Below, in pieces: positions 3,644 to 38,058 of a DNA stretch of 64,000 nucleotides. The notes under the pieces were generated by a model that searched no databases, was not told the DNA's origin, and saw nothing but the letters and a program-made list of their open reading frames with translations. The stretch comes from Escherichia coli (GTDB lineage Bacteria; Pseudomonadota; Gammaproteobacteria; Enterobacterales; Enterobacteriaceae), in assembly GCF_044324785.1 (NCBI RefSeq), contig NZ_CP172128.1. The stretch is one strand, 5' to 3'. The translations under genes were made by a program, and so were the position numbers. Position 1 is the stretch's first letter. Each line of letters opens with the position of its first letter.

Positions 3644-4980
3644 TGAGCTGGCCCCCTGAAACACCAGACAGTAGATGTATCTTAAAATAAGAGGTAGGCT
3701 TGGATATATGTCTAACACTAGTTCTAATTTTGAGATGGCTGGCGTTTTGTTAGGAAAAGAGGTGCGTAAACGTAAAACACCTCAGGAAAAAATCACAATT
3801 ATTCAACAGACTATGGAGCCAGGCATGACGGTGTCTCACGTGGCGCGTTTGCATGGAATTCAGCCCAGCCTGTTGTTTAAGTGGAAAAAACAATACCAGG
3901 AAGGAAGTCTCACTGCTGTGGCTGCGGGTGAAGACGTTGTTCCTGCTTCTGAACTGGCCGCTGCGATAAAGCAGATTAATCAGCTTCAGCGTTTACTGGG
4001 CAAGAAAACAATGGAAGTTGAGCTCCTCAAAGAAGCGGTGGAGTACGCGCAATCGCGAAAATGGATAGCGCATGTGCCCTTGTTACCTTCGGACAAGGAA
4101 TAGCCCCGGTAAGCCGTGTTCTGGGCGTGTCGCGTGCGCAGTTAACATTACGGATGAAGGCATCTGATAACAAGACAGATAAACGGCGTCAGAGACGCGA
4201 TGAGGCTGCGGATGCAGAAGTCTTATCGCGCATCCTGGATATCATTGGCGATATGCCAACATATGGGTATCGCCGTGTCTGGGCGATACCCAGACGGCAG
4301 TCCCGAAATGAAGGCCTGCCGTTCGTGAATGCAAAACGCGTTTACCGGATAATGAGCGAAAACAGCCTGTTGTTGTTGCATGACAAACCATCACGACCTC
4401 AGCGGGCACATAAAGGCCGTGTAGAGGTTAATAAAAGCGACCAGCGTTGGTGTTCCAATGGCTTTGAGTTCGGTTGCGATGATGGCGAAAAAGTCCGGGT
4501 TACGTTCGCCCTGGACTGTTGCGATCGTGAAGCTATCGACTGGGCAGCCAGTACGGGAGGTTACGATAAATCGACAGTGCAGGATGTGATGTTAGGCGCG
4601 ATAGAAAAACGCTTTGGCGATAAAGTGCCGGAACAGTCGATCCAGTGGCTGACAGATAACGATTCAGCGTACAGAGCGCATGAAACACGGCAGTTCGCCA
4701 GAGAGCTGAATCTGGAGCCCTGTACGACGGCAGTCAGCAGTCCTCAGAGTAATGGAATGGCAGAACGGTTCGTGAAAACGATGAAGGAAGACTACATCGC
4801 GTTCATGCCGAAACCGAATGTAAGAACGGCAGTGCATAACCTTGCAGTGGCGATCGAGCATTATAACGAATGGCATCCGCATAGTGCACTGGGTTATCGC
4901 TCGCCACGGGAATATCTGCGGCAGCAGGCCAGTAATGGGTTAAGTGATAACAGGTGTCTGGAAATATAGGGGCAAATCCA
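3644..4980 (+). mobile_element. IS3-family insertion sequence, IS2-like variant (orfA 3675-4103, orfB 4061-4969)
   Basis: overlapping orfA/orfB typical of IS3 family; orfB C-terminus and right end (GGAAATATAGGGGCAAATCCA) identical to IS2; left end TGAGCTGGCCCCCTGAA resembles IS2 IRL; no clear target duplication. Confidence 0.7.
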
Positions 4981-5242
4981 CTGCTGATAATTTAAGTCTG
5001 GCACTAATGATTTTTAGCAATTTTGCGGGTGGGGATGATTTTTTATCCGGAGCAAACCCAATACTTTTCAGATAACAGAGAAGAGCGGCAAAACCAAACC
5101 GGCTGGCAGGTTTACGGTGAACATTGATAATTGCCAGATCCTGTTCACTGAAATACGTCATTCGAGTCAGTGTTAACTCATCGTCTGGTAATGCCAGTAA
5201 TGATTCTTTTTCCGACTGCGAAAGAATCTGCCTCCTTGCCAT
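4981..5242 (-). pseudogene. tnpA: Tn21/Tn3-family transposase TnpA, N-terminal ~87 codons only (truncated by IS2-like element)
   Basis: translation MARRQILSQSEKESLLALPDDEL... matches the conserved N-terminus of Tn21-subfamily TnpA; ORF runs into the IS right end at 4980. Confidence 0.6.
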
Positions 5243-5408
5243 ATAGCCTTCCTTGTAAATTATTTAGTGCGTTATTTTTGATTAAAAAGTTATTGTATAA
5301 GGGTATACCCTGATGCAATAGACAAAACGTGACAGCACTCCAATAATGACATAACCTATATGCGATAGAATAAATGCAATAATCTAAACGCGATAGCGTG
5401 GTAGAAAA
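5243..5408. promoter_or_regulatory. putative res site / divergent promoter region between tnpA and resolvase
   Basis: AT-rich 166-bp divergent intergenic region with repeated GCGATAG motifs; position equivalent to res in Tn3-type modules. Confidence 0.3.
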
Positions 5409-6050
5409 ATGTTCATCAGAGCTTATTTAAGGGCATCGACAGAAGATCAGTTCGCCGATCGGGCAAAAGAGATGCTGGAGCAGTTCGTTCAGGAGCGGGG
5501 GCATAAAATCGCCAGCTACTACCGGGAGAACATCAGCGGCACAAAACTAGACCGCCCGGAACTGGGACGCTTACTGATGGACAGTCATCGCAATGATATC
5601 TTGCTGGTCGAGCAGATAGACCGCCTGACCCGTCTTAGCAACAGTGACTGGATAACGCTGAAAAAGCAGATAGAACAACACGAGTTGCGGATTGTCAGTC
5701 TTGATGTGCCCACATCATGGCAGGCTCTGTCAGATAAAGATCCTTCGCAAGCGGACCCGATCACCCGCACAGTAATAACCGCAATAAATAATATGCTTAT
5801 CGACCTGATGGCTGCAATGTCGCATAAAGACTGGCTGAGTCGTCGTCAACGACAAAAACAGGGAATTGAACGTGCCCATACTTTAGGTAAGTATCGGGGC
5901 AAACAGGCAGATCGGGAACGACATCAGAAAGTAATGTACTACCGGCAGATCAAGAAACTGAGCATCCGTGAAACGGCAGAGGTGACAGGCTATAGTACTT
6001 CCCAAGTTTGTCGCATTCAGGCGCTCTATAAAGAGGTTAAACCTGATTAA
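5409..6050 (+). CDS. serine recombinase (resolvase/invertase family)
   Basis: 213 aa; N-terminal catalytic motif YLRASTEDQ with Ser10; C-terminal HTH region; divergent from tnpA fragment. Confidence 0.7.
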   Translation: MFIRAYLRASTEDQFADRAKEMLEQFVQERGHKIASYYRENISGTKLDRPELGRLLMDSHRNDILLVEQIDRLTRLSNSDWITLKKQIEQHELRIVSLDVPTSWQALSDKDPSQADPITRTVITAINNMLIDLMAAMSHKDWLSRRQRQKQGIERAHTLGKYRGKQADRERHQKVMYYRQIKKLSIRETAEVTGYSTSQVCRIQALYKEVKPD

Positions 6051-6058
6051 AAAATAGC

Positions 6059-6096
6059 CTTAACGTACAATATTTTCCGTTTCCCAAACGGAGCCC
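6059..6096. repeat. Tn21-type 38-bp terminal inverted repeat
   Basis: reverse complement GGGCTCCGTTTGGGAAACGGAAAATATTGTACGTTAAG: GGG outer end, ACGGAAAATA core, TAAG inner end. Confidence 0.55.
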
Positions 6097-6579
6097 AAGA
6101 AGACGGCCGGCGGGCGGAATACGGCACGCTACCTGGGTCGTTATCTGAAGAAGCCACCAATAGCGGCTTCCCGGCTGGCACATTACAACGGAGGGGCGAG
6201 CCTGAGCTTCCGTTACCTGGACCACAAAACGGGAGAGACAGCGACGGAAACGCTGACGCAGCGTGAGCTGGTCGCGAGGATGAAACAGCACATCCCGGAG
6301 AAGTTTTTTAAGATGGTGAGGTACTTCGGGTTCCTTGCCAACCGGGGGTGTGGAGAGAAGCTGCCGCAGGTGTACCGAGCTCTGGGGATGGATAAACCGG
6401 AACCGGTGGCGAAAGTGTGCTATGCACAAATGGTGAAACAGTTCCTGAGTCGTGACCCGTTCGAATGCGTGCTGTGTGGCAGCCGGATGGTATACCGCCG
6501 GGCCCTTGCGGGGCTGAATGTATCAGGGCTGAAGAAAAACGCGCGGGATATCAGTCTGCTGAGGTATGTGCCGGCCTGA
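6097..6579 (+). pseudogene. IS91-family transposase, C-terminal fragment
   Basis: in-frame translation ...YLGRYLKKPPIAASRLAHYNG...VRYFGFLANRG... resembles IS91-family transposase C-termini; 5' part replaced by the Tn21-type IR. Confidence 0.5.
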
Positions 6580-7309: not shown

Positions 7310-7585
7310 CTACCTGTTTTCTCGTGTGTGCCACAGGCGCAATACATAAATAGTCTGGCCATTAAGTTCGTAACGGATTTCGTACTCGCCAGCAAAAATC
7401 CGTCTGACCTCCCTGGGTTCAAACTGAAACAACTGTTCTCCCATACGTGGATGAGTTAACAGAATGACCGGTGCCTGTGTCAGGGACTGCACCGTTCTGG
7501 CGGCCGCAGGTTTACTGGCCAGCACCAGAAAATCATATAACCGCGCCAAATCAGAAAGCGCCTTACTGGTCCACTTCAGTTCCAT
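7310..7585 (-). CDS. type II toxin, RelE/ParE family
   Basis: 91 aa, RelE/ParE-like size and C-terminal basic residues; start overlaps stop of upstream small RHH-type ORF. Confidence 0.7.
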   Translation of the reverse strand: MELKWTSKALSDLARLYDFLVLASKPAAARTVQSLTQAPVILLTHPRMGEQLFQFEPREVRRIFAGEYEIRYELNGQTIYVLRLWHTRENR

Positions 7586-7869
7586 CAGCGTGGCACCGGT
7601 AACGGATTGTCAGTACTGAGGCTGTCCGCCCAGGCCTGTACAGCCTGATGGTCGATAACCTGTCCGGATTTCACATCGTCCAGGGCTTCCAGCGTCAGGC
7701 GATTACGCTCCTCCTCCTGGGCAAGCCATGCAGAAAGCGCCTGTTTGATAACCCAGCCCCGGGAGCGTTCCAGTCTGGCGGCCATCTGGTCGACTTTATC
7801 AGCCATTGGTAATGGCACATGCGCGGTAATGACTTTTGTTGCCTGTGCGGTATTGTTTTTCATTTGCAT
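7585..7869 (-). CDS. type II antitoxin (ribbon-helix-helix, ParD/CopG-like)
   Basis: 94 aa, directly upstream of and overlapping the toxin gene. Confidence 0.6.
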   Translation of the reverse strand: MQMKNNTAQATKVITAHVPLPMADKVDQMAARLERSRGWVIKQALSAWLAQEEERNRLTLEALDDVKSGQVIDHQAVQAWADSLSTDNPLPVPR

Positions 7870-7925
7870 ACCCGATTAGTTGTTAATCATATTTAATCAT
7901 AGTGATTACTTTCAGACGGAACAAG

Positions 7926-9631
7926 GCAAATAATGCGCGTCAGCGCATGTAAGGCGGCACTCCGTTGTTGCATATGGCACAGGAGTAAAACCGCCGAAGC
8001 CCGGCGTAAGCCGGTACTGACTGATAGATTTCACCTTACCCATCCCCAGCCCTTGTATGTAATAGGACTCGATGGCTAGCTACCATCATATGAAGCAGAG
8101 TGAGCTTGTCCCAGCCCTGAACAGTCAGACTTTGATTAGCAGCAAAAGCCCTCTGCTTCACCTTTCACGCCAGCATTAACATTGAACGGTTGCCAAGAGC
8201 GATGACTCTGCATGTACAAGGGGAATAGGCGTGATGGTTTGGTGAAAGGAGAATATTCATGTTTCAGTTAGGTATTGATGTCAGCAAGAAAACGCTGGAT
8301 TTGTGCCTGCTGCGCGAAGGCGTAAAAGGCAGAGTTAAAACCCGAAAGCTTCAGAATGATATTAATGCTGTCAGCGCGGTAATAGCCTGGCTCAGTAAGC
8401 AACATTGTAAACCTGAAGATGTCCATATCATCATGGAAGCCACTGGTGTTTATCATGAATCACTGGCTTACGGGCTTCACAAAGCCGGGGGCCGGATATC
8501 ACTTGCCAACCCACACAGGGCAAGAGAGTTTGCCCGGGGTATGGGAATGCTGACCAAAAATGACCGGGTTGATGCTTATATGCTGGCTTGCTATGGCGTG
8601 CTTAAAGCACCGGAGCCATGGCTTCCTCCACCGGAAGAAGTCCGCCATCTCAGTGCACTGCTCCGCAGACGTGATGCTCTTGTGGCTGACAGTACTCGCG
8701 AAAAAAACAGGCTGGAAAAATACCTGGCAACAGACACACCTTCTGTTATAGCTGAATCCGTAGAGGCAATGATTGGTCAGTTGAACGCAGAAATTAAACG
8801 TCTGGACAGACTGATCCGTTCACACCTTAACCAGCATCCTGAATTAAAAAAGGATTTTGACCTGCTGACGTCAATAAAATCCGTAGGTTATCAGTTAGGT
8901 CTGAATATGCTTGTCATCCTGCGGAGCCATGATTTCGCCACAGCAGAACAGGTGGCTGCATTTTTAGGTGTCGTTCCCGTTGAAAAATATTCCGGCACCT
9001 CGGTCAGAGGGTGTCCGAAACTGTCAAAAATTGGTCCGCCGGAAATCCGGGCGAAACTGTATCTGGCTTCGTTGTGTGGTCTGAGATTTAACCCATTGAT
9101 GAAAGCGATGTATGAGCGATTATGCCTGAGAGGTAAGGGCAAAATGTGTGCCATTGGTGCGCTGATGAGAAAACTCGTGCACTGGTGCTATGGCGTACTG
9201 AAGACCCAAAAACCGTTTGATGTGGGCTATTTGCCTTCATATGCGCGTAGCGCATGTAAGGCGGCATGATGTAGTTACATATGGTACAGGAGTAAAACCG
9301 CCGAAGCCCGGCGTAAGCCGGTACGTATTGATAGGTTTCACCTATCCCATCCCTGCCCTGCGAGGCCATACGGGCTTTCAGCGATGATGAAGTATAGGTA
9401 AGCCCTTTTAACCCCGTTAGCGCGGCTATGCCGCGCTGTATCGGGGACTTAGTGCTGACAGCTTGCTGGCAGTACTTAGGGGGCTGTACGTCGGAGTTCA
9501 AGCGATTTTTCTTGACAGAACACGGTAGCTGCTAAGCCATACCCGCTTTCAGCCATGAGAGAGCTTCTGTGCGCGGTCGGAGTGGTCCCGACGAGGGTTT
9601 ACCCGAAGTCGGGACGTATCTCCGCGTTAGC
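7926..9631 (+). mobile_element. IS110-family insertion sequence (boundaries uncertain)
   Basis: contains the IS110-type transposase; ~100-bp imperfect direct repeats at 7926-8040 and 9240-9345; highly structured non-coding tail 9270-9631. Confidence 0.4.
8259..9269 (+). CDS. IS110-family transposase (DEDD-type recombinase)
   Basis: 336 aa, N-terminal MFQLGIDVSKKTLDLCLL characteristic of IS110/IS1111 transposases. Confidence 0.8.
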   Translation: MFQLGIDVSKKTLDLCLLREGVKGRVKTRKLQNDINAVSAVIAWLSKQHCKPEDVHIIMEATGVYHESLAYGLHKAGGRISLANPHRAREFARGMGMLTKNDRVDAYMLACYGVLKAPEPWLPPPEEVRHLSALLRRRDALVADSTREKNRLEKYLATDTPSVIAESVEAMIGQLNAEIKRLDRLIRSHLNQHPELKKDFDLLTSIKSVGYQLGLNMLVILRSHDFATAEQVAAFLGVVPVEKYSGTSVRGCPKLSKIGPPEIRAKLYLASLCGLRFNPLMKAMYERLCLRGKGKMCAIGALMRKLVHWCYGVLKTQKPFDVGYLPSYARSACKAA

Positions 9632-9699
9632 GGGGTCAGTTTGGAATTCGGAAAATAAACCATGTTAAGACTATTTTTTAGCCAAAGGGCTTTCAGGAA

Positions 9700-9840
9700 T
9701 CGCCAGAATGGCGGGACAACAGTGGTTTTGGTGTCCGAAATCGACCGGTTTCGGACATTGTTAAACAGATATATCCGAAAGTCAGCGAAATTACTTTCGG
9801 ACATGCATTATAATATGTACACCCATTTCGTACAGAAGAT
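9700..9840. promoter_or_regulatory. res-site-like repeats upstream of tnpR
   Basis: palindromic subsites TGTCCGAAATCGACCGGTTTCGGACA and CCGAAAGTCAGCGAAATTACTTTCGGACA. Confidence 0.45.
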
Positions 9841-9846
9841 CTCACT

Positions 9847-10437
9847 ATGTCTCGAATTTTTGCCTATTGTCGGGTTTCCACTCTGGAACAGACGACCGAA
9901 AATCAACGTCGGGAAATCGAAAGCGCGGGTTTTAACGTCAGACCCCAACGAATAATCGAAGAACAAATTAGTGGATCAGTAGCAGCCAGTGAACGTCCAG
10001 GTTTTAACCGGTTGCTTGATCGTCTGGAAAGTGGCGATGTATTGATAGTCACAAAACTGGATCGCCTCGGTCGTAATGCAATGGATATCAGGAAAACAGT
10101 GGAGCAACTGACCGAATCTGGCATCAGGGTACATTGCCTGGCATTAGGTGGTGTTGATCTGACCAGTCCGGCAGGAAAAATGACAATGCAAGTGATTTCA
10201 GCGGTCGCTGAATTTGAACGAGATCTTTTACTTGAACGAACTTATTCAGGGATAGCAAGAGCACGGGATGCAGGAAAACGTTTTGGTCGCCCACCGGTAT
10301 TAAATGAAGAACAAAAACAGAAGGTACTCGAACACATTAAGTCTGGGGGAAGTATAAGTGCTATTGCCAGGGAATTCCGAACCACACGGCAAACAATTCT
10401 GAGAGTTAGAGCGAAACAGCAAACTGTTACTGTATAG
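9847..10437 (+). CDS. tnpR: serine resolvase TnpR
   Basis: 196 aa; catalytic N-terminus [11 protein letters not shown]; C-terminal HTH; Tn3-family resolvase architecture. Confidence 0.8.
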
Positions 10438-10483
10438 AAAATAGTCTTAGCGTGGGATATTTTCCGTTTTCCAAGCGGACCCC

Positions 10484-10680
10484 AAGGAAGACTACATCGC
10501 GTTCATGCCGAAACCGAATGTAAGAACGGCATTGCATAATCTTGCAGTGGCGATCGAACATTACAATGAAAACCATCCGCACAGTGCGTTGGGTTATCGC
10601 TCTCCGCGAGAATATCGACGTCAGCGGGTAACATTAACTTAAGATACAACCCCTGTCTGGAAATAAGGGGGCAAGAACAC
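10484..10680 (+). pseudogene. 3' fragment of IS2-like orfB transposase with right-end remnant
   Basis: near-identical at nucleotide level to 4785-4980 of the IS2-like element; begins abruptly at the mini-element IR. Confidence 0.55.
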
Positions 10681-10791
10681 ATTGACACTGTAAATATGGC
10701 ATTGTATAAAACCCCGCGATAATAATGAGTTTCATTTGCATTACTCCCATTTGCTGGTCATCCACTCGCCTGTTTACAAGGATAGCGTTTA

Positions 10792-11790
10792 ATGAAGAAG
10801 GTCCTTTGCGCGTTAGGCTTGATGTTCACCGCCGTCAGTTCCGCGCTGGCAACAACCTACCCCCTGACGATTGAAAACTGCGGCTATCAGGAGACCTTCA
10901 CCCGGCCGCCGGAGCGCGTGGTCGCGCTGGGGCAAAATACGGTCGAAATTCTGCTGCTGCTCGGGCTGCAAAAGCAGGTGGTCGCCAGCGCCTTCTGGCC
11001 GACCAGCGTTTTACCGCAGCTGGCTGAGCAAAACGCGAAGATTAAAACCTTGACGGTGGAAATTCCGAGCCTGGAATCGGTGCTGGCGCAAAATCCTGAT
11101 TTCGTTCCCGCCCAGTTGCCGCTGCTGCTGGGGCCGGAAAGCAAAGTCGCCAGGCGTGAAGATCTCGCCACCGTCGGCGTGAACAGCTACGTCTCACCGG
11201 GGGTGTGCGCCACCAAAAAGGCCACCGGCGATATGTACGGCAGCCGGCAAAAGCTGTGGGATATGACCTGGCTGTATCAGGAAATTAGCGATTTTTCCCG
11301 CATTTTCAACGTCGAAGATCGTGGTCAGGCGCTGATTGCCGATTTCAAAAAACGTGAAGCCGACCTGCGCCAGGAGTTTGGTAAAAGCAAAAAGGATCTC
11401 TCCTTCGTCTTCTGGTTCTCCAGCGCCTCACCTTCGGCCGATGCCTATGTCGGCGGCAAAAACAGCGCCTCCGGATTTATCGCCAGCGTGCTGGGCGGAC
11501 ATAATGCGATTACCTCCGAAACCGAGTGGCCCACGGTGAGCTGGGAGAGCATTATTGCCGCCAACCCGGATGTGATCGTGGTCGCCAGCCTGGATCGTAA
11601 CCGCTGGGCGCTGGATAAAGCCGAGGAGAAGATCAAATTCCTCAAAAGCGATCCCGCCGTCAGCCAGCTGGAGGCGGTGAAAAAAGGCCATATCGTGGTC
11701 ATGGACGGTCAGGCGATGAATCCGACCATTCGCACGCTTTACGGAGCGGAGCAGGTGGGCGAGCAGCTGAGAAAAATGGGGCTGAACTGA
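10792..11790 (+). CDS. ABC transporter periplasmic substrate-binding protein (iron/siderophore type)
   Basis: 332 aa with signal peptide; followed by FecCD-type permease and ATPase genes. Confidence 0.7.
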   Translation: MKKVLCALGLMFTAVSSALATTYPLTIENCGYQETFTRPPERVVALGQNTVEILLLLGLQKQVVASAFWPTSVLPQLAEQNAKIKTLTVEIPSLESVLAQNPDFVPAQLPLLLGPESKVARREDLATVGVNSYVSPGVCATKKATGDMYGSRQKLWDMTWLYQEISDFSRIFNVEDRGQALIADFKKREADLRQEFGKSKKDLSFVFWFSSASPSADAYVGGKNSASGFIASVLGGHNAITSETEWPTVSWESIIAANPDVIVVASLDRNRWALDKAEEKIKFLKSDPAVSQLEAVKKGHIVVMDGQAMNPTIRTLYGAEQVGEQLRKMGLN

Positions 11791-12827
11791 TGAGCGTCGG
11801 CGCGATTGAGACGTGCCGCAGCATACTGCTCACCGGCTGGTGTGTACTGGCAGCGATCGTGCTGGCGCTGGTGATCGCTGTGGGCGTCAGCGTTGGCGAG
11901 CTGGCCATCCCGCTGCAGAATGTCTTTTATGCTATCAGCAACAGAACCGGCTTAACCGCTGAGCCGCTCAACCGTATCTATGAGAGCGTTATCTGGGATT
12001 TCCGCCTCAGCCGCGCGCTGGTCGCCGCCTGCTGCGGCGCCGGCCTCGCTATCTGCGGTGTCGTGCTGCAAAGCTTGCTGAAGAATGCCCTCGCCGAACC
12101 CTACGTCCTCGGCGTCTCCGCCGGGGCCTCCACCGGCGCGGTGTCGATCGTGGTGCTGGGCCTTGGCTCTGGCGCAATTTCCCTCTCGGCAGGCGCCTTT
12201 GCCGGGGCCTTCGCCGCCTTCGCCTTTGTCGCCTTGCTGACTAACGGCGCGCGCGGCGGCAATGAGCGTACGATTCTTGCGGGCGTCGCCGCCTCGCAGT
12301 TATTTAACGCCATCACGGCCTATACCATCAGCACCACCGCCAGCGCGCAGCAGGCGCGCGATGTGATGTTCTGGCTGCTGGGCAGCTTCAGCGGCGTCCG
12401 CTGGCCCGAATTCCAGTTGGTCATCGTGGTGGTGCTCGCGGGTCTGGCGGTCTGCCTGTGGTATGCCCGGGCGCTGGACGCGTTCACCTTCGGCGACGAT
12501 GCCGCCGCCTCGCTGGGGATTGCTGTGCCGCGCGTGCGCCTGATCCTCTTCACCACTGCGGCGCTGATCACCGCCACCATCGTCAGCATGGCCGGCTCAA
12601 TCGGCTTTGTTGGCCTGGTGGTGCCGCACGTGATGCGTTTCTTCTTTGGCCCGCTGCACCGAACGTTGCTGATCGCCAGCGCGCTGGCAGGGGCGATATT
12701 GATGGTACTGGCGGACATTGCGTCGCGCCTGCTGATTGCCCCGCAAAGTCTGCCCGTTGGGGTAGTAACCGCCCTGGTTGGGGTGCCTTTCTTTGCCGTG
12801 ATTATCTACCGCTCAAGGAATAAGTGA
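11790..12827 (+). CDS. ABC transporter permease, FecCD family
   Basis: 345 aa, multi-pass hydrophobic, FecCD-like conserved glycine-rich segments; start overlaps upstream stop. Confidence 0.75.
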   Translation: MSVGAIETCRSILLTGWCVLAAIVLALVIAVGVSVGELAIPLQNVFYAISNRTGLTAEPLNRIYESVIWDFRLSRALVAACCGAGLAICGVVLQSLLKNALAEPYVLGVSAGASTGAVSIVVLGLGSGAISLSAGAFAGAFAAFAFVALLTNGARGGNERTILAGVAASQLFNAITAYTISTTASAQQARDVMFWLLGSFSGVRWPEFQLVIVVVLAGLAVCLWYARALDAFTFGDDAAASLGIAVPRVRLILFTTAALITATIVSMAGSIGFVGLVVPHVMRFFFGPLHRTLLIASALAGAILMVLADIASRLLIAPQSLPVGVVTALVGVPFFAVIIYRSRNK

Positions 12828-13588
12828 TGAGTATTTGCGCTGAAAATATCACCTGGAAGGCAGGCAAAAAGGTCATCGTCAATAATGTCTCGCTGCGGGT
12901 GCCGCGCGGAGAAACGGTCGGACTGCTGGGGCCCAACGGCTGCGGCAAATCCTCGCTGCTGCGCGTTCTGGCGGGCCTGCGCCGCCCGGATGCAGGTCGC
13001 GTCACCCTCGACGGCCAGGATATCGCCCGGATGGCGAAAAAGCAGCTCGCCCGCCGCGTGGCTTGCGTCGAGCAACACGGCATGACCGAGGCCAATATGC
13101 GGGTGCGCGACGTCGTGCGCCTGGGACGCATTCCCCACCACTCTCCGTTCTCAAACTGGAGCGCTCAGGATGACGAAGCGATTGCCGCCGCGCTGCAGCG
13201 GGTAGCGATGCTGGAGAAAAGCGAACAGGGATGGTTAAGCCTCTCCGGCGGCGAGCGGCAGCGGGTGCATATCGCCCGCGCGCTGGCGCAGAGCCCGAGC
13301 GAAATCCTGCTGGATGAGCCGACCAACCATCTGGATATACACCATCAGATGCAGTTAATGCAGTTGATCAGCGAGCTGCCGGTAACCAGCATTGTGGCCA
13401 TTCACGATCTTAACCATGCCGCGATGTTCTGCGATTCGCTGATCGTGATGCAGCAGGGGCAGATCCTCGCCAGCGGGACGCCGGAGGAGATTTTGTCCGA
13501 AGCGCTGCTGTGGGACGTTTTCCGGGTGAAAACCAAAATCGAGATCTCCCCTTACCACGGCAAAAAGCACATTCATTTCATCGTTTAG
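12824..13588 (+). CDS. ABC transporter ATP-binding protein
   Basis: Walker A GPNGCGKSS, signature LSGGERQR, Walker B LLDEPT. Confidence 0.85.
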   Translation: MMSICAENITWKAGKKVIVNNVSLRVPRGETVGLLGPNGCGKSSLLRVLAGLRRPDAGRVTLDGQDIARMAKKQLARRVACVEQHGMTEANMRVRDVVRLGRIPHHSPFSNWSAQDDEAIAAALQRVAMLEKSEQGWLSLSGGERQRVHIARALAQSPSEILLDEPTNHLDIHHQMQLMQLISELPVTSIVAIHDLNHAAMFCDSLIVMQQGQILASGTPEEILSEALLWDVFRVKTKIEISPYHGKKHIHFIV

Positions 13589-13599
13589 GTTGGGCGGAT

Positions 13600-14832
13600 A
13601 TGCCTCTTTTCTCCCTGCGCCCTGCGGCAACCCTCTGGCCTCCGGTGTTACTGGGAAGCCAGTTCGTTTTTAATATTGGCTTTTACGCGGTCGTACCTTT
13701 CCTCGCCCTCTTCCTGCGCGACGACATGCTGCTCTCAGGCGGACTTATCGGCCTGATCCTCGGGCTGCGTACCTTCTCCCAACAGGGGATGTTTATCCTC
13801 GGCGGGACGCTGGCCGACCGCTATGGCGCTAAGGCGATCATTCTCGCCGGCTGCGTCGTTCGCGTCGCCGGTTTTCTCCTGCTGGCGTGCGGGGCGTCGC
13901 TGTGGGCCATTATCCTTGGCGCCTGCCTGACCGGCGTCGGCGGCGCCCTGTTCTCCCCGTCGATAGAGGCCCTGCTGGCGCGGGCCGGTACCCACAGCCA
14001 GGCCAACGGGAAACGCAGCCGCGCCGAGTGGTTTGCGCTGTTTGCGGTATGCGGTGAACTGGGAGCGGTGATCGGCCCGGTGGCCGGAGGCGTGCTGAGC
14101 GGGATCGGCTTTCGACATATCGCCCTCGCCGGCGCGGGAATATTTCTTCTGGCGCTGGCGGTGCTCTTTTTCGGTCTGCCCGCCGACGGGCACACGACAA
14201 CAACGCGCAGACGAGTCCCATGGTGGACGCCTTTGCGCCAGCCGCGCTTTGTCGCGTTTATTCTCGCCTACAGCTCATGGCTGTTGAGCTACAACCAACT
14301 CTACCTCGCTCTGCCGGTGGAGATCCAACGTTCCGGCGGCCGCGAGCAGGATCTGGCGCCGCTCTTTATGCTGGCCTCGCTGTTGATTATCACCCTCCAG
14401 CTCCCTCTCGCCCGCTTCGCCCGGCGAATGGGCGCCGTGCGCATCCTGCCGGTGGGCTTTCTGCTGCTGTCGGCTTCCTTTGCCAGCGTGGCGTTATTCG
14501 CCGCCGCCCCACCCGCCGAAAGTTGGCTGCGGTTAATGCCGGCGGCTGGTTTTGTCACGCTGCTCACCCTCGGCCAGATGCTGTTAGTGCCCGCAGCCAA
14601 GGATCTGATCCCGCTGTTCGCCGAGGAGTCGACGCTGGGCGCCCACTACGGAGCGCTCGCCACCGCAGGAGGGTGCGCGGTGTTAGCCGGGAATTTACTG
14701 CTCGGTCATTTACTTGACCAGGCGCTCATTCCGTCGCCGCAGGCGGTTTATCCCTGGCTTCTGCTGGCGCTGTTTCCGCTGTGCAGCGCCGTCGCCCTGC
14801 GGGCGATCTGTCGCCCGCTGGCGGCAACATGA
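13600..14832 (+). CDS. MFS transporter
   Basis: ~410 aa hydrophobic 12-TM-like protein; ATG at 13600 just after ATPase stop preferred over the 13510 ORF-track start, which overlaps the ATPase. Confidence 0.6.
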   Translation: MPLFSLRPAATLWPPVLLGSQFVFNIGFYAVVPFLALFLRDDMLLSGGLIGLILGLRTFSQQGMFILGGTLADRYGAKAIILAGCVVRVAGFLLLACGASLWAIILGACLTGVGGALFSPSIEALLARAGTHSQANGKRSRAEWFALFAVCGELGAVIGPVAGGVLSGIGFRHIALAGAGIFLLALAVLFFGLPADGHTTTTRRRVPWWTPLRQPRFVAFILAYSSWLLSYNQLYLALPVEIQRSGGREQDLAPLFMLASLLIITLQLPLARFARRMGAVRILPVGFLLLSASFASVALFAAAPPAESWLRLMPAAGFVTLLTLGQMLLVPAAKDLIPLFAEESTLGAHYGALATAGGCAVLAGNLLLGHLLDQALIPSPQAVYPWLLLALFPLCSAVALRAICRPLAAT

Positions 14833-36094: not shown

Positions 36095-36722
36095 CCTGTG
36101 TATCCGGATATTTGAAATGGATCTTCCAGAAGCGGACTCGGGTAGTATCTTCATGGTTTGGCTTTCAGCAGATCTGTGACTCTGCTATTTATTGATGAAT
36201 ATGACCTTTACAATTCCAGTTATTGTTCTGATTGCAATAATCACTTCATCACAATAATCCACCATTTTTTGTGATTATCTGGCAATAATTTTCTTTTCTG
36301 CTCCAGAGATCCGAAAACTCCTGGTTCCGGATCCGCGGATCCTTCGCTGCCGCCCGCTGGTCCGCTTTCACAGGATGTGGTGTCCCGCTCCGCTGACATG
36401 ACACTGTATGTTGTGTTTCTTCCCGTGTTCCCGAGCCAGTCATCAGCGGCAGAAAAGATCGCTTCGCTTATTCACTGATCCTGATTCACTTCCGGAAAAT
36501 CCTGAATCCGATAAAAATCGGATCATAGAAAAACAGTCATCCTGTAATTTATCATAGTTACTACATTGCAGGTTATTATTGTCATGATTACTTTTCAGGT
36601 CAGTTATTGATGGTGGTGTTAATAATAGCTGGATAACAATATTCCGTTGCCGGAGGCATGTTATAGCGTAATACTGGTGTATACTTAATGGTGTACAGAG
36701 AGTATGTAAGATGAGGTGCATT

Positions 36723-37248
<526 letters not shown>

Positions 37249-38058
37249 ATGTCAGGCTCCGTTATACACAGCCAGTCTGCAGCCATGGTACCGGCAGTGT
37301 ATTCTGCCGGACAGTCTGCACAACTTCCTGTTGCCATTGATTATCCGGCAGCTCTGGCACTCCGCCAGATGTCGATGGTTCATGATGAACTGCCGAAATA
37401 TCTGCTGGCTCCCGAGGTGAGTGCCCTGCTTCATTATGTCCCGGATCTGCGCCGCAAGATGCTGCTGGCCACTCTGTGGAACACCGGCGCGCGTATTAAT
37501 GAAGCACTAGCGCTGACGCGGGGGGATTTTTCGCTCACGCCTCCGTATCCGTTTGTGCAGCTGGCCACTCTGAAGCAGCGGACAGAAAAAGCCGCCAGGA
37601 GGGCAGGAAGGATGCCCGCCGGTCAGCAGACTCACCGTCTGGTTCCGCTCTCCGACGCCTGGTACGTCAGCCAGCTGCAGACGATGGTGGCCACACTGAA
37701 AATCCCCATGGAACGGCGTAATAAACGAACAGGCAGGACAGAGAAAGCGCGGATCTGGGAAGTGACGGACAGAACGGTCAGGACCTGGATTGGGGAGGCG
37801 GTTGCCGCCGCTGCTGCTGACGGTGTGACGTTCTCTGTTCCGGTCACACCACATACGTTCCGCCATTCCTATGCGATGCACATGCTGTATGCCGGTATAC
37901 CGCTGAAAGTTCTGCAAAGCCTGATGGGACATAAGTCCATCAGTTCAACGGAAGTCTACACGAAGGTTTTTGCGCTGGATGTGGCTGCCCGGCACCGGGT
38001 GCAGTTTGCGATGCCTGAGTCCGATGCGGTCACAATGCTGAAAAACAGACATGTATAA
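37249..38058 (+). CDS. resD: ResD tyrosine site-specific recombinase (F-plasmid D protein type)
   Basis: 269 aa; tyrosine recombinase C-terminal motifs (HTFRHSYAMHML, GHKSISSTEVYTKV); immediately downstream of ccdB as in F. Confidence 0.8.
   Translation: MSGSVIHSQSAAMVPAVYSAGQSAQLPVAIDYPAALALRQMSMVHDELPKYLLAPEVSALLHYVPDLRRKMLLATLWNTGARINEALALTRGDFSLTPPYPFVQLATLKQRTEKAARRAGRMPAGQQTHRLVPLSDAWYVSQLQTMVATLKIPMERRNKRTGRTEKARIWEVTDRTVRTWIGEAVAAAAADGVTFSVPVTPHTFRHSYAMHMLYAGIPLKVLQSLMGHKSISSTEVYTKVFALDVAARHRVQFAMPESDAVTMLKNRHV

Follow-up and report, generated by a model that had tools for sequence, protein, structure and literature searches.

The 852-bp unit at positions 9632 to 10483 of the window, the whole 64-kb stretch of DNA that was analyzed, was found to be a real transposase-less element of the Tn3 family and of the TIME-RES type, with the order IR, res, tnpR, IR. 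Comparison with its relatives indicates that the unit is probably a chimera, in which a TIME and a full-length transposon were joined at the center of res site I by a serine-recombinase crossover. Everything from the left IR through a 62-bp inner segment to the middle of site I would have come from a TIME donor of approximately 284 bp, and everything from the middle of site I onward, with sites II and III, tnpR and the right IR, from a 3.8-kb Tn2501/Tn2502-like donor. The first-pass annotation had described a mini-element; the transposase-less IR-res-tnpR-IR unit is real, but in place of a single trimmed transposon the comparisons point to a chimera made at site I. The unit and its surroundings were resolved into the following features.

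Approximately 8054 to 9528, plus strand: IS110-family element in the repA4 region, outside the mini-element (NF033542, 206 bits; comparison with pEC-81009).
9529 to 9631, no strand assigned: left flank, IncFII repA4-region DNA, contiguous with 7936 to 8053 in the uninterrupted site of pEC-81009; annotated as partial RepA4 in RefSeq.
9632 to 9669, plus strand: left terminal IR, "X-type", 38 bp, GGGGTCAGTTTGGAATTCGGAAAATAAACCATGTTAAG; IR-like complementarity reaches 9680.
9670 to 9731, plus strand: inner segment from the left IR to res site I, attributed to the TIME; it has no homology to the full-length transposon, where the start of tnpA sits.
9732 to 9757, plus strand: res site I, a 26-bp palindrome, TGTCCGAAATCG-AC-CGGTTTCGGACA; its center (9744 to 9745) is the chimera breakpoint and presumed crossover.
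9772 to 9803, plus strand: res site II, 32 bp, inverted half-sites TATCCGAAA ... TTTCGGACA; half-sites conserved and spacer variable in 12 full-length relatives.
9809 to 9814, plus strand: conserved TATAAT between sites II and III, a putative tnpR -10 box from the alignment.
9816 to 9834, plus strand: res site III, TGTACACCCATTTCGTACA, a conserved block in the alignment.
9847 to 10437, plus strand: tnpR, encoding a serine recombinase of 196 aa (catalytic Ser11); the sole long ORF between the IRs.
10446 to 10483, minus strand: right terminal IR, "parent type", 38 bp, GGGGTCCGCTTGGAAAACGGAAAATATCCCACGCTAAG; the extended arm starts at 10435.
10484 to 10631, plus strand: right flank, a 3' fragment of IS2 orfB (IS2 TnpB aa 241 to 288 of 301).

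When the two ends of the unit were compared directly, the outer 38 bp were identical at 30 of 38 positions, with GGGG at the outer ends and TAAG at the inner ends, as the first-pass annotation had described for its two inverted 38-bp IRs. An inverted-repeat search gave arms of 49 nt (9632 to 9680 and 10435 to 10483) that were 82% complementary. The best inverted pair around tnpR scored 28/34 compared to a median of 19/34 around 80 related recombinase genes in the same scan; the IR pair of the unit is well above chance. The Tn21 IR matched the two unit IRs at 28/38 and 31/38 positions, and the IRs of Tn3 and gamma-delta gave a weaker match. Moreover, each IR was found to be a member of its own well-populated family at 36 to 38 of 38 positions. 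The right IR agrees at 36-38/38 positions with either IR of the full-length transposon relatives, and the X-type left IR is also present in the 284-bp TIME of colicin plasmids and, in a decayed form, upstream of pinR.

In sister ColV plasmids, IS4321 (pEND_Eco18006; L004 2731/4057) and IS5075 (pEC7-1; L009 3831/5160) were inserted at one identical position of the right IR, between GGGATATT and TTCCG. A statement in PMC8269217, made there with reference to Partridge & Hall 2003, is that IS4321 and IS5075 target the terminal IRs of Tn21-like transposons. Both ends of the unit are genuine Tn21-subgroup IRs, and the insertions in the right IR confirm the IR type in the manner of a natural experiment. 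The identity of 30/38 is unusually low for a single transposon and would agree with one of the two IRs being fortuitous, a case that the first-pass annotation had itself raised. The chance of this is practically nil and we regard the reading as refuted, given the family membership of each IR, the recognition of the right IR by IS4321 and IS5075, and a pair score far over the background.

The ORF list contained no transposase ORF between the IRs, and a tblastn search with the parent TnpA gave no match there. The tnpR product was assigned the Pfam domains Resolvase (E 1.1e-38) and HTH_7, and its Ser11 aligned with Ser9 of Gin; in an NCBIfam scan no family reached its cut-off for this protein. 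The ORF list, the domains and the three-subsite res uphold the earlier view that nothing other than a res-like region and a 196-aa resolvase gene lies inside the IRs. The reported lack of a 5-bp target duplication was also confirmed, with TTAGC on the left flank and AAGGA on the right.

To delimit the res region, the 175 bp upstream of tnpR were aligned with 12 relatives in which a Tn3-family tnpA is divergent. In these 12 transposase-linked relatives, inverted TGTCCGAAA/TGTACGAAA half-sites form three conserved blocks, separated by spacers that vary. The density of half-sites upstream of 81 related genes was 3.4 per 190 bp compared to a background of 0.16, and their positions were fixed at -114/-98 (site I) and -74/-52 (site II) relative to the start codon. 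The -74/-52 geometry of site II recurred in 35 of the 81 loci. Judged from the alignment, this upstream architecture is that of a resolvase res and not that of an invertase crossover site. A generic promoter and terminator scan gave no call upstream of tnpR, the TATAAT box being missed because a good -35 is absent, and an Rfam scan of 7800 to 10800 gave no match. Site I of the unit is the only perfect copy in the 64-kb window. A look-alike of the site I core with one mismatch, TCCGAAAACTCCTGGTTCCGGA, was found at 36310 to 36331, after an IS2 and upstream of ccdB/resD in the F-type region; it was considered as a true site I and judged to be a chance match, with no accessory half-sites nearby.

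The recombinase itself could be read in two ways. In sequence it is about equally distant from the Gin invertase and the gamma-delta/Tn3 resolvases, the best solved-structure match being Gin (E 1e-29), with gamma-delta resolvase at E 1.8e-24. It is 84% identical to PinQ and PinR; according to a 2025 paper (PMC12529663), these two proteins act in trans, when overproduced, to invert the P segment of e14, and for this reason the label "resolvase" is drawn from context. These similarities, together with a site I that forms a 26-bp palindrome, would agree with a mainly Pin-type invertase that acts in trans on tail-fibre segments, the IRs and res being relics. In contrast, a complete three-subsite res of conserved geometry precedes tnpR, 10 of 80 relatives are divergently linked to a Tn3-family tnpA, and no second site I in inverted orientation was found in the 64-kb window. 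The flanking IRs are Tn3-type ends, not invertase crossover sites. The res of pinR and pinQ has decayed, so that their activity in trans may be a secondary use. We consider an invertase of this kind unlikely and favor a primary role as a resolvase, because the res is intact, relatives are linked to tnpA and natural recombinants at site I exist, as described below; an additional invertase activity of the protein is possible.

TnpR would be expected to bind the three subsites and repress its own promoter, and to resolve res x res substrates such as cointegrates and plasmid multimers. An F-type ResD system is already encoded in the window at 37249 to 38058, and therefore a role of the unit in multimer resolution, itself conjectural, would be redundant. 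The unit resembles gamma-delta and Tn3 in its serine recombinase, which has a C-terminal HTH, in a res made up of three subsites with inverted half-sites, in the TGTCCGA-type half-site, and in the divergent tnpA of its parent. It differs from them in its distant sequence (E approximately 1e-24) and in subsite lengths and spacing, with a site I of 26 bp and centers of sites I and II 43 bp apart, and its IRs belong to the Tn21 subgroup and not to the Tn3 subgroup.

The two sides of site I were found to have different closest relatives. On the right, window 9723 to 10483 matched a full-length transposon of E. albertii p1RM9976 at its tnpR end with 98.0% identity, and the 738 bp from 9746 to 10483 (the right half of res, sites II and III, tnpR and IRR) were 98-99% identical to this 3.8-kb Tn2501/Tn2502-like transposon. 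The p1RM9976 transposon is 3,845 bp in length and consists of IRL, tnpA, res, tnpR and IRR, with tnpA and tnpR divergent; its IRs are 37/38 identical to each other and of the same type as the right IR of the unit. A second full copy was present in the E. coli plasmid pZ1322MEC0001-2, and ten further relatives, counted with one genome per species, have a TnpA 83-90% identical to that of E. albertii. A divergent Tn3-family tnpA was located approximately 160 bp away in the ten tnpA-linked loci of the 80 surveyed, as well as in L007 and L011, and the recombinases of those ten are 68-90% identical to the unit protein. Canonical 5-bp duplications were found in two relatives with both ends in the locus, TTGAA/TTGAA in L027 and TATTA/TATTA in L038, whose IRs match the right IR of the unit at 36-38/38; therefore the parent family is an active Tn3-family transposon.

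Among the transposons that have a name, Tn2502 of pYV is related more distantly, with IRs at 36-37/38 and a tnpR approximately 74% identical in DNA. It is an arsenic transposon that is defective and is complemented in trans by Tn2501 (PMC3316555). Compared to the Tn2501/Tn2502/Tn2503-type transposons and the unnamed 3.8-kb transposon, the unit has the same right 738-bp module (98-99% with the unnamed transposon) but is without tnpA, and its left end is from another element. The first-pass annotation had also allowed that the unit might only ever occur as the end of a full-length transposon. This applies to its right part, since approximately 760 bp are such an end elsewhere, and not to the left part, which appears to come from a TIME.

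On the left, window 9632 to 9745 was approximately 90% identical to a TIME in L005, and window 9628 to 9743 matched the left end of this 284-bp IR-to-IR element, which lies between cbi and cvi of a ColBM plasmid (L005 3992-4275). The element is gene-free and contains degenerate sites I to III; because these sites are inside it and a gene is absent, it is a res-bearing TIME. No published name for it was found in the literature surveyed on such TIMEs. TIMEs of approximately 280 bp with an X-type left IR, degenerate sites I to III and a parent-type right IR were present in three plasmid contexts, the other two being E. albertii pEA25_2 (L012 2618-2906), where the copy adjoins a parE gene, and the ColE1/EcoRI plasmid pCol-4 (L101 approximately 5464-5741), where it adjoins exc2 and the genes for EcoRI restriction-modification. 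None of these three copies showed a clean 5-bp duplication. Left-end fragments of the TIME, consisting of the IR and approximately 80 bp and ending in site I, were found in thousands of IncF plasmids. One relic in IncFII backbones, between IS1 and pemK (L008 929-1049), matched window 9641 to 9752 at 82% identity. It stops within site I, of which it retains the left half, together with an X-type IR and approximately 80 bp of the inner segment. IS101 and TIME244 (PMC13367494) are likewise miniature IR-to-IR elements with an internal res, the kind that would have donated the left end of the unit; these two and the 284-bp TIME are without a recombinase gene, in contrast to the 852-bp unit.

In a seven-sequence alignment, the unit followed the TIMEs up to ...TGTCCGAAATCG and then the transposons from the central dinucleotide on (CGGTTTCGGACATTG...), so that the mosaic switched exactly at the center of res site I (9744 to 9745). 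A resolvase-mediated origin of the joint is suggested, because a crossover at site I is what resolvases catalyze. An independent replicate was found in metagenome contig L100, which has a ColE1-type backbone and matched pCol-4 at 99.7% identity over the exc2 flank and the IR and on to the middle of site I. At the center of site I (after TCG-TA-C) L100 leaves the pCol-4 TIME and passes into a transposon-type res and tnpR, while pCol-4 continues as TIME; L100 is thus a second TIME x transposon recombinant at the same position. Its right part was 97% identical to that of the unit but its left part only 77-81%, and on this ground the two are considered to be separately arisen recombinants. Such natural recombinants indicate, from their sequences, that site I is used for crossover.

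The central dinucleotide was AC in the unit and the transposons and TA in the sampled TIMEs and in L100, and therefore either the actual TIME donor had AC or the crossover was imperfect. The collections searched contained neither of the parental insertions, the one being repA4 interrupted at TTAGC by a TIME and the other IS2 interrupted at AAGGA by a transposon. The pinR and pinQ elements share the asymmetric IR pair (approximately 83%), which points to an old lineage of such units; the 852-bp unit could be an old one in which the right half was later replaced, and this would still be an exchange at site I.

The order IR, res, tnpR, IR is also what would be expected after loss of tnpA from an IRL-tnpA-res-tnpR-IRR transposon, and plain internal deletion of one full-length transposon may be the origin of two other elements. 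These are 881-bp IR-res-tnpR-IR units at L071 464-1344 and L072 4823-5703, from an unclassified Proteobacteria MAG and an Acidithiobacillus MAG, respectively. They are 87% identical to each other, lie in different contexts, and encode proteins 71% identical to the unit protein; neither has a 5-bp duplication. Full-length, tnpA-bearing relatives of the two were found in L058 and L066, and because homology to these relatives starts a few bp before site I, both units may be deletion derivatives. For the 852-bp unit, however, the left 113 bp do not correspond to the left end of the parent, the IR there being just 81% alike, and the inner 62 bp are without a counterpart in the parent but match another element at approximately 90%. 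The IRs of the parent are 37-38/38 identical to each other compared to 30/38 here. A simple deletion is already contradicted by the alignment, and we regard it as very improbable.

The flanks of the unit were of unrelated origins, IncFII repA4 on the left and IS2 on the right, in a region 100% identical to the E. coli plasmid pLH10-b-1-A. The first-pass annotation had placed the left end directly against the IS110-family element. This did not hold, as 103 bp lie between that element and the left IR, and the pEC-81009 comparison and the RefSeq RepA4 call identify 9529 to 9631 as repA4 DNA that extends up to the IR. Its placement of the right end against an IS2-like fragment was correct; the fragment, labeled "integrase core domain, missing N-terminus" in RefSeq, is the C-terminal part of IS2 TnpB. 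The unit lies just upstream of the iron-transport genes eitABCD (10792 to 14832) in an IS-dense region. PLSDB contains at least 118 ColV-type virulence plasmids with the unit, which is annotated only as "recombinase family protein", and a search of the open-access literature gave nothing specific on the unit in ColV plasmids. At least 75 plasmids share one 1652-bp context, with repA4 on the left and the IS2 fragment on the right, upstream of eitABCD. Variants cut by IS26 or interrupted by IS5075, and four metagenome contigs, had the same context.

Every copy of the unit that was traced to its flanks was in this one context and without a target duplication, and the search for the same unit with 5-bp duplications elsewhere, which had been proposed as a check, found none. 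Among these copies there was no sign that the unit had been inserted at this spot as a whole. If a res x res event had joined a TIME located in repA4 to a transposon located in IS2, the outcome would be a deletion when both were on one molecule and a fusion otherwise. Each IR would then have retained its own original flank, IncFII repA4 on the left and the interrupted IS2 on the right, and the target duplication would be missing because of this. These findings suggest that a deletion or a fusion of replicons, mediated by a resolvase, took place at this site, and not an insertion of the unit.

The opposite course would be that the unit inserted whole, as a mini-transposon mobilized in trans, and that later rearrangements associated with IS2 or IS110 erased one flank together with the duplication. 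The region is a nest of IS elements, and units of the same design occur elsewhere, namely pinR and pinQ in the Rac and Qin prophages and the 881-bp elements of L071 and L072. Moreover, TIME-RES, an element of the same design, was mobilized in trans into a trap plasmid and produced a 5-bp duplication there (Szuplewska et al. 2014, PMC4133298; KJ934990). Against this, the one context of the at least 75 plasmids holds for all flank-traced copies, none of them has a 5-bp duplication, no plasmid was found in which the right IR is joined to the repA4 continuation, and the mosaic of 98% and approximately 90% identity broken at site I is explained without transposition of the unit. We therefore consider insertion of the whole unit rather improbable. 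On its structure, the unit could still be mobilizable if a cognate TnpA were supplied in trans.

From its sequence the unit can be placed as an enterobacterial member of the TIME-RES kind. TIME-RES itself is 1186 bp in length with 8 IR mismatches, is a hybrid of a TIME and the res-tnpR of Tn5563, and has one database copy without direct repeats (PMC4133298). Both are non-autonomous Tn3-family elements with imperfect IRs (8 mismatches each), a res and a resolvase gene and no transposase, and both are hybrids of a miniature TIME with the res-tnpR module of a full transposon. TIME-RES differs in its unrelated lineage, its length of 1186 bp, a 309-aa TnpR from the mercury transposon Tn5563, and a Pseudomonas host. 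Transposition was demonstrated for TIME-RES, whereas for the enterobacterial unit it is only presumed; for the unit, in turn, the joint can be placed at the center of res site I and has an independent replicate.

A relation to the prophage genes pinR (Rac) and pinQ (Qin) was apparent beyond the protein. The K-12 pinR and pinQ DNA was 83% identical to window 9789 to 10476, from 58 bp upstream of the start codon to the inner 31 bp of the right IR. Within the pinR and pinQ elements (L002/L003 2357-3193), a right IR remnant of 25/38 was found with the spacing to the stop codon that the unit has, and an X-type IR remnant of 26/38 was found 200 bp upstream of the start. In other surveyed loci without recognizable IRs, the best X-type score was 23 and typical scores were 17-21, compared to 26 for pinR and pinQ. 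The inner-left segment of pinR and pinQ aligned to that of the unit (z approximately 4), and their res was decayed, with no site I geometry. The decayed IRs of pinR were missed by the inverted-repeat finder and were visible only against the IR families. These comparisons suggest that pinR and pinQ are decayed copies of the IR_X-res-tnpR-IRR architecture. They have in common with the unit 84% protein and 83% DNA identity, the decayed X-type IR at -200 and a homologous inner-left segment. They differ in IRs reduced to 25-26/38, in a decayed res, in a prophage tail-fibre gene context, and in the reported inversion of the e14 P segment in trans. A query joining the flanks (600 nt) found no empty pinR or pinQ site in 5,426 E. 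coli genomes or 50,697 phage records. A 5-bp repeat, TTCCT, would be possible at pinR and pinQ only on the assumption that the right IR has lost 3 bp.

The two independent natural recombinants imply that res-bearing miniature elements swap partners with full transposons at site I, an exchange that can fuse or delete plasmid segments without target duplications, and a TIME-RES-type chimera of this kind would explain a ColV backbone junction. For the recombinase clade of PinR and PinQ, the biology of which is now under reinterpretation, the unit would also supply a cognate res and an origin in evolution. As a tentative extension, in which we place a little less than even confidence, res-bearing TIMEs may act as landing pads that repeatedly capture Tn2501/Tn2502-like res-tnpR modules at site I, giving rise to portable cassettes and to replicon fusions and deletions. 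The ColV eit region would have been joined to IncFII through such a scar, and pinR and pinQ, recently reported as phage-defence invertases, would descend from a Tn3-family TIME-RES and not from a phage invertase. No new principle is involved, as res-mediated mosaicism in Tn3-family elements and TIME-RES were already known; the present analysis adds that the joint can be located precisely at site I and has a replicate, that both parents are identified, that the flanks are corrected, and that pinR and pinQ are linked to the unit.

Several further observations were made in the neighborhood of the unit. The 3' part of the IS110-family element (9252 to 9387) contains 137 bp that copy the target region at 86% identity and span the insertion point of the element itself (L008 2517-2653), the target being 7936 to 8053 plus 9529 to 9634. 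The IS110 family has an RNA-guided transposase, and the 137-bp copy could be a target mimic or a second copy of repA4. A second, truncated Tn3-family end was present at 4988 to 6096. It consists of an 85-aa N-terminal TnpA fragment (4988 to 5242, minus strand, 54% to E. albertii TnpA), a divergent 213-aa serine recombinase (5409 to 6050) and a Tn21-type IR (6059 to 6096) located 8 bp past the stop codon, as in the unit. An IS3-family element at approximately 3735 to 4969, directly before this end, presumably truncated it. Outside the two right-hand IRs, 10484 to 10492 and 6097 to 6104 start alike (AAGGAAGAC and AAGAAGAC), and the flanks are otherwise unrelated; the likeness is probably due to chance. 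A RelE/ParE toxin and ribbon-helix-helix antitoxin pair was found at 7310 to 7869, immediately to the left of the repA4 remnant, and a parE-family gene also adjoins the TIME in E. albertii pEA25_2.
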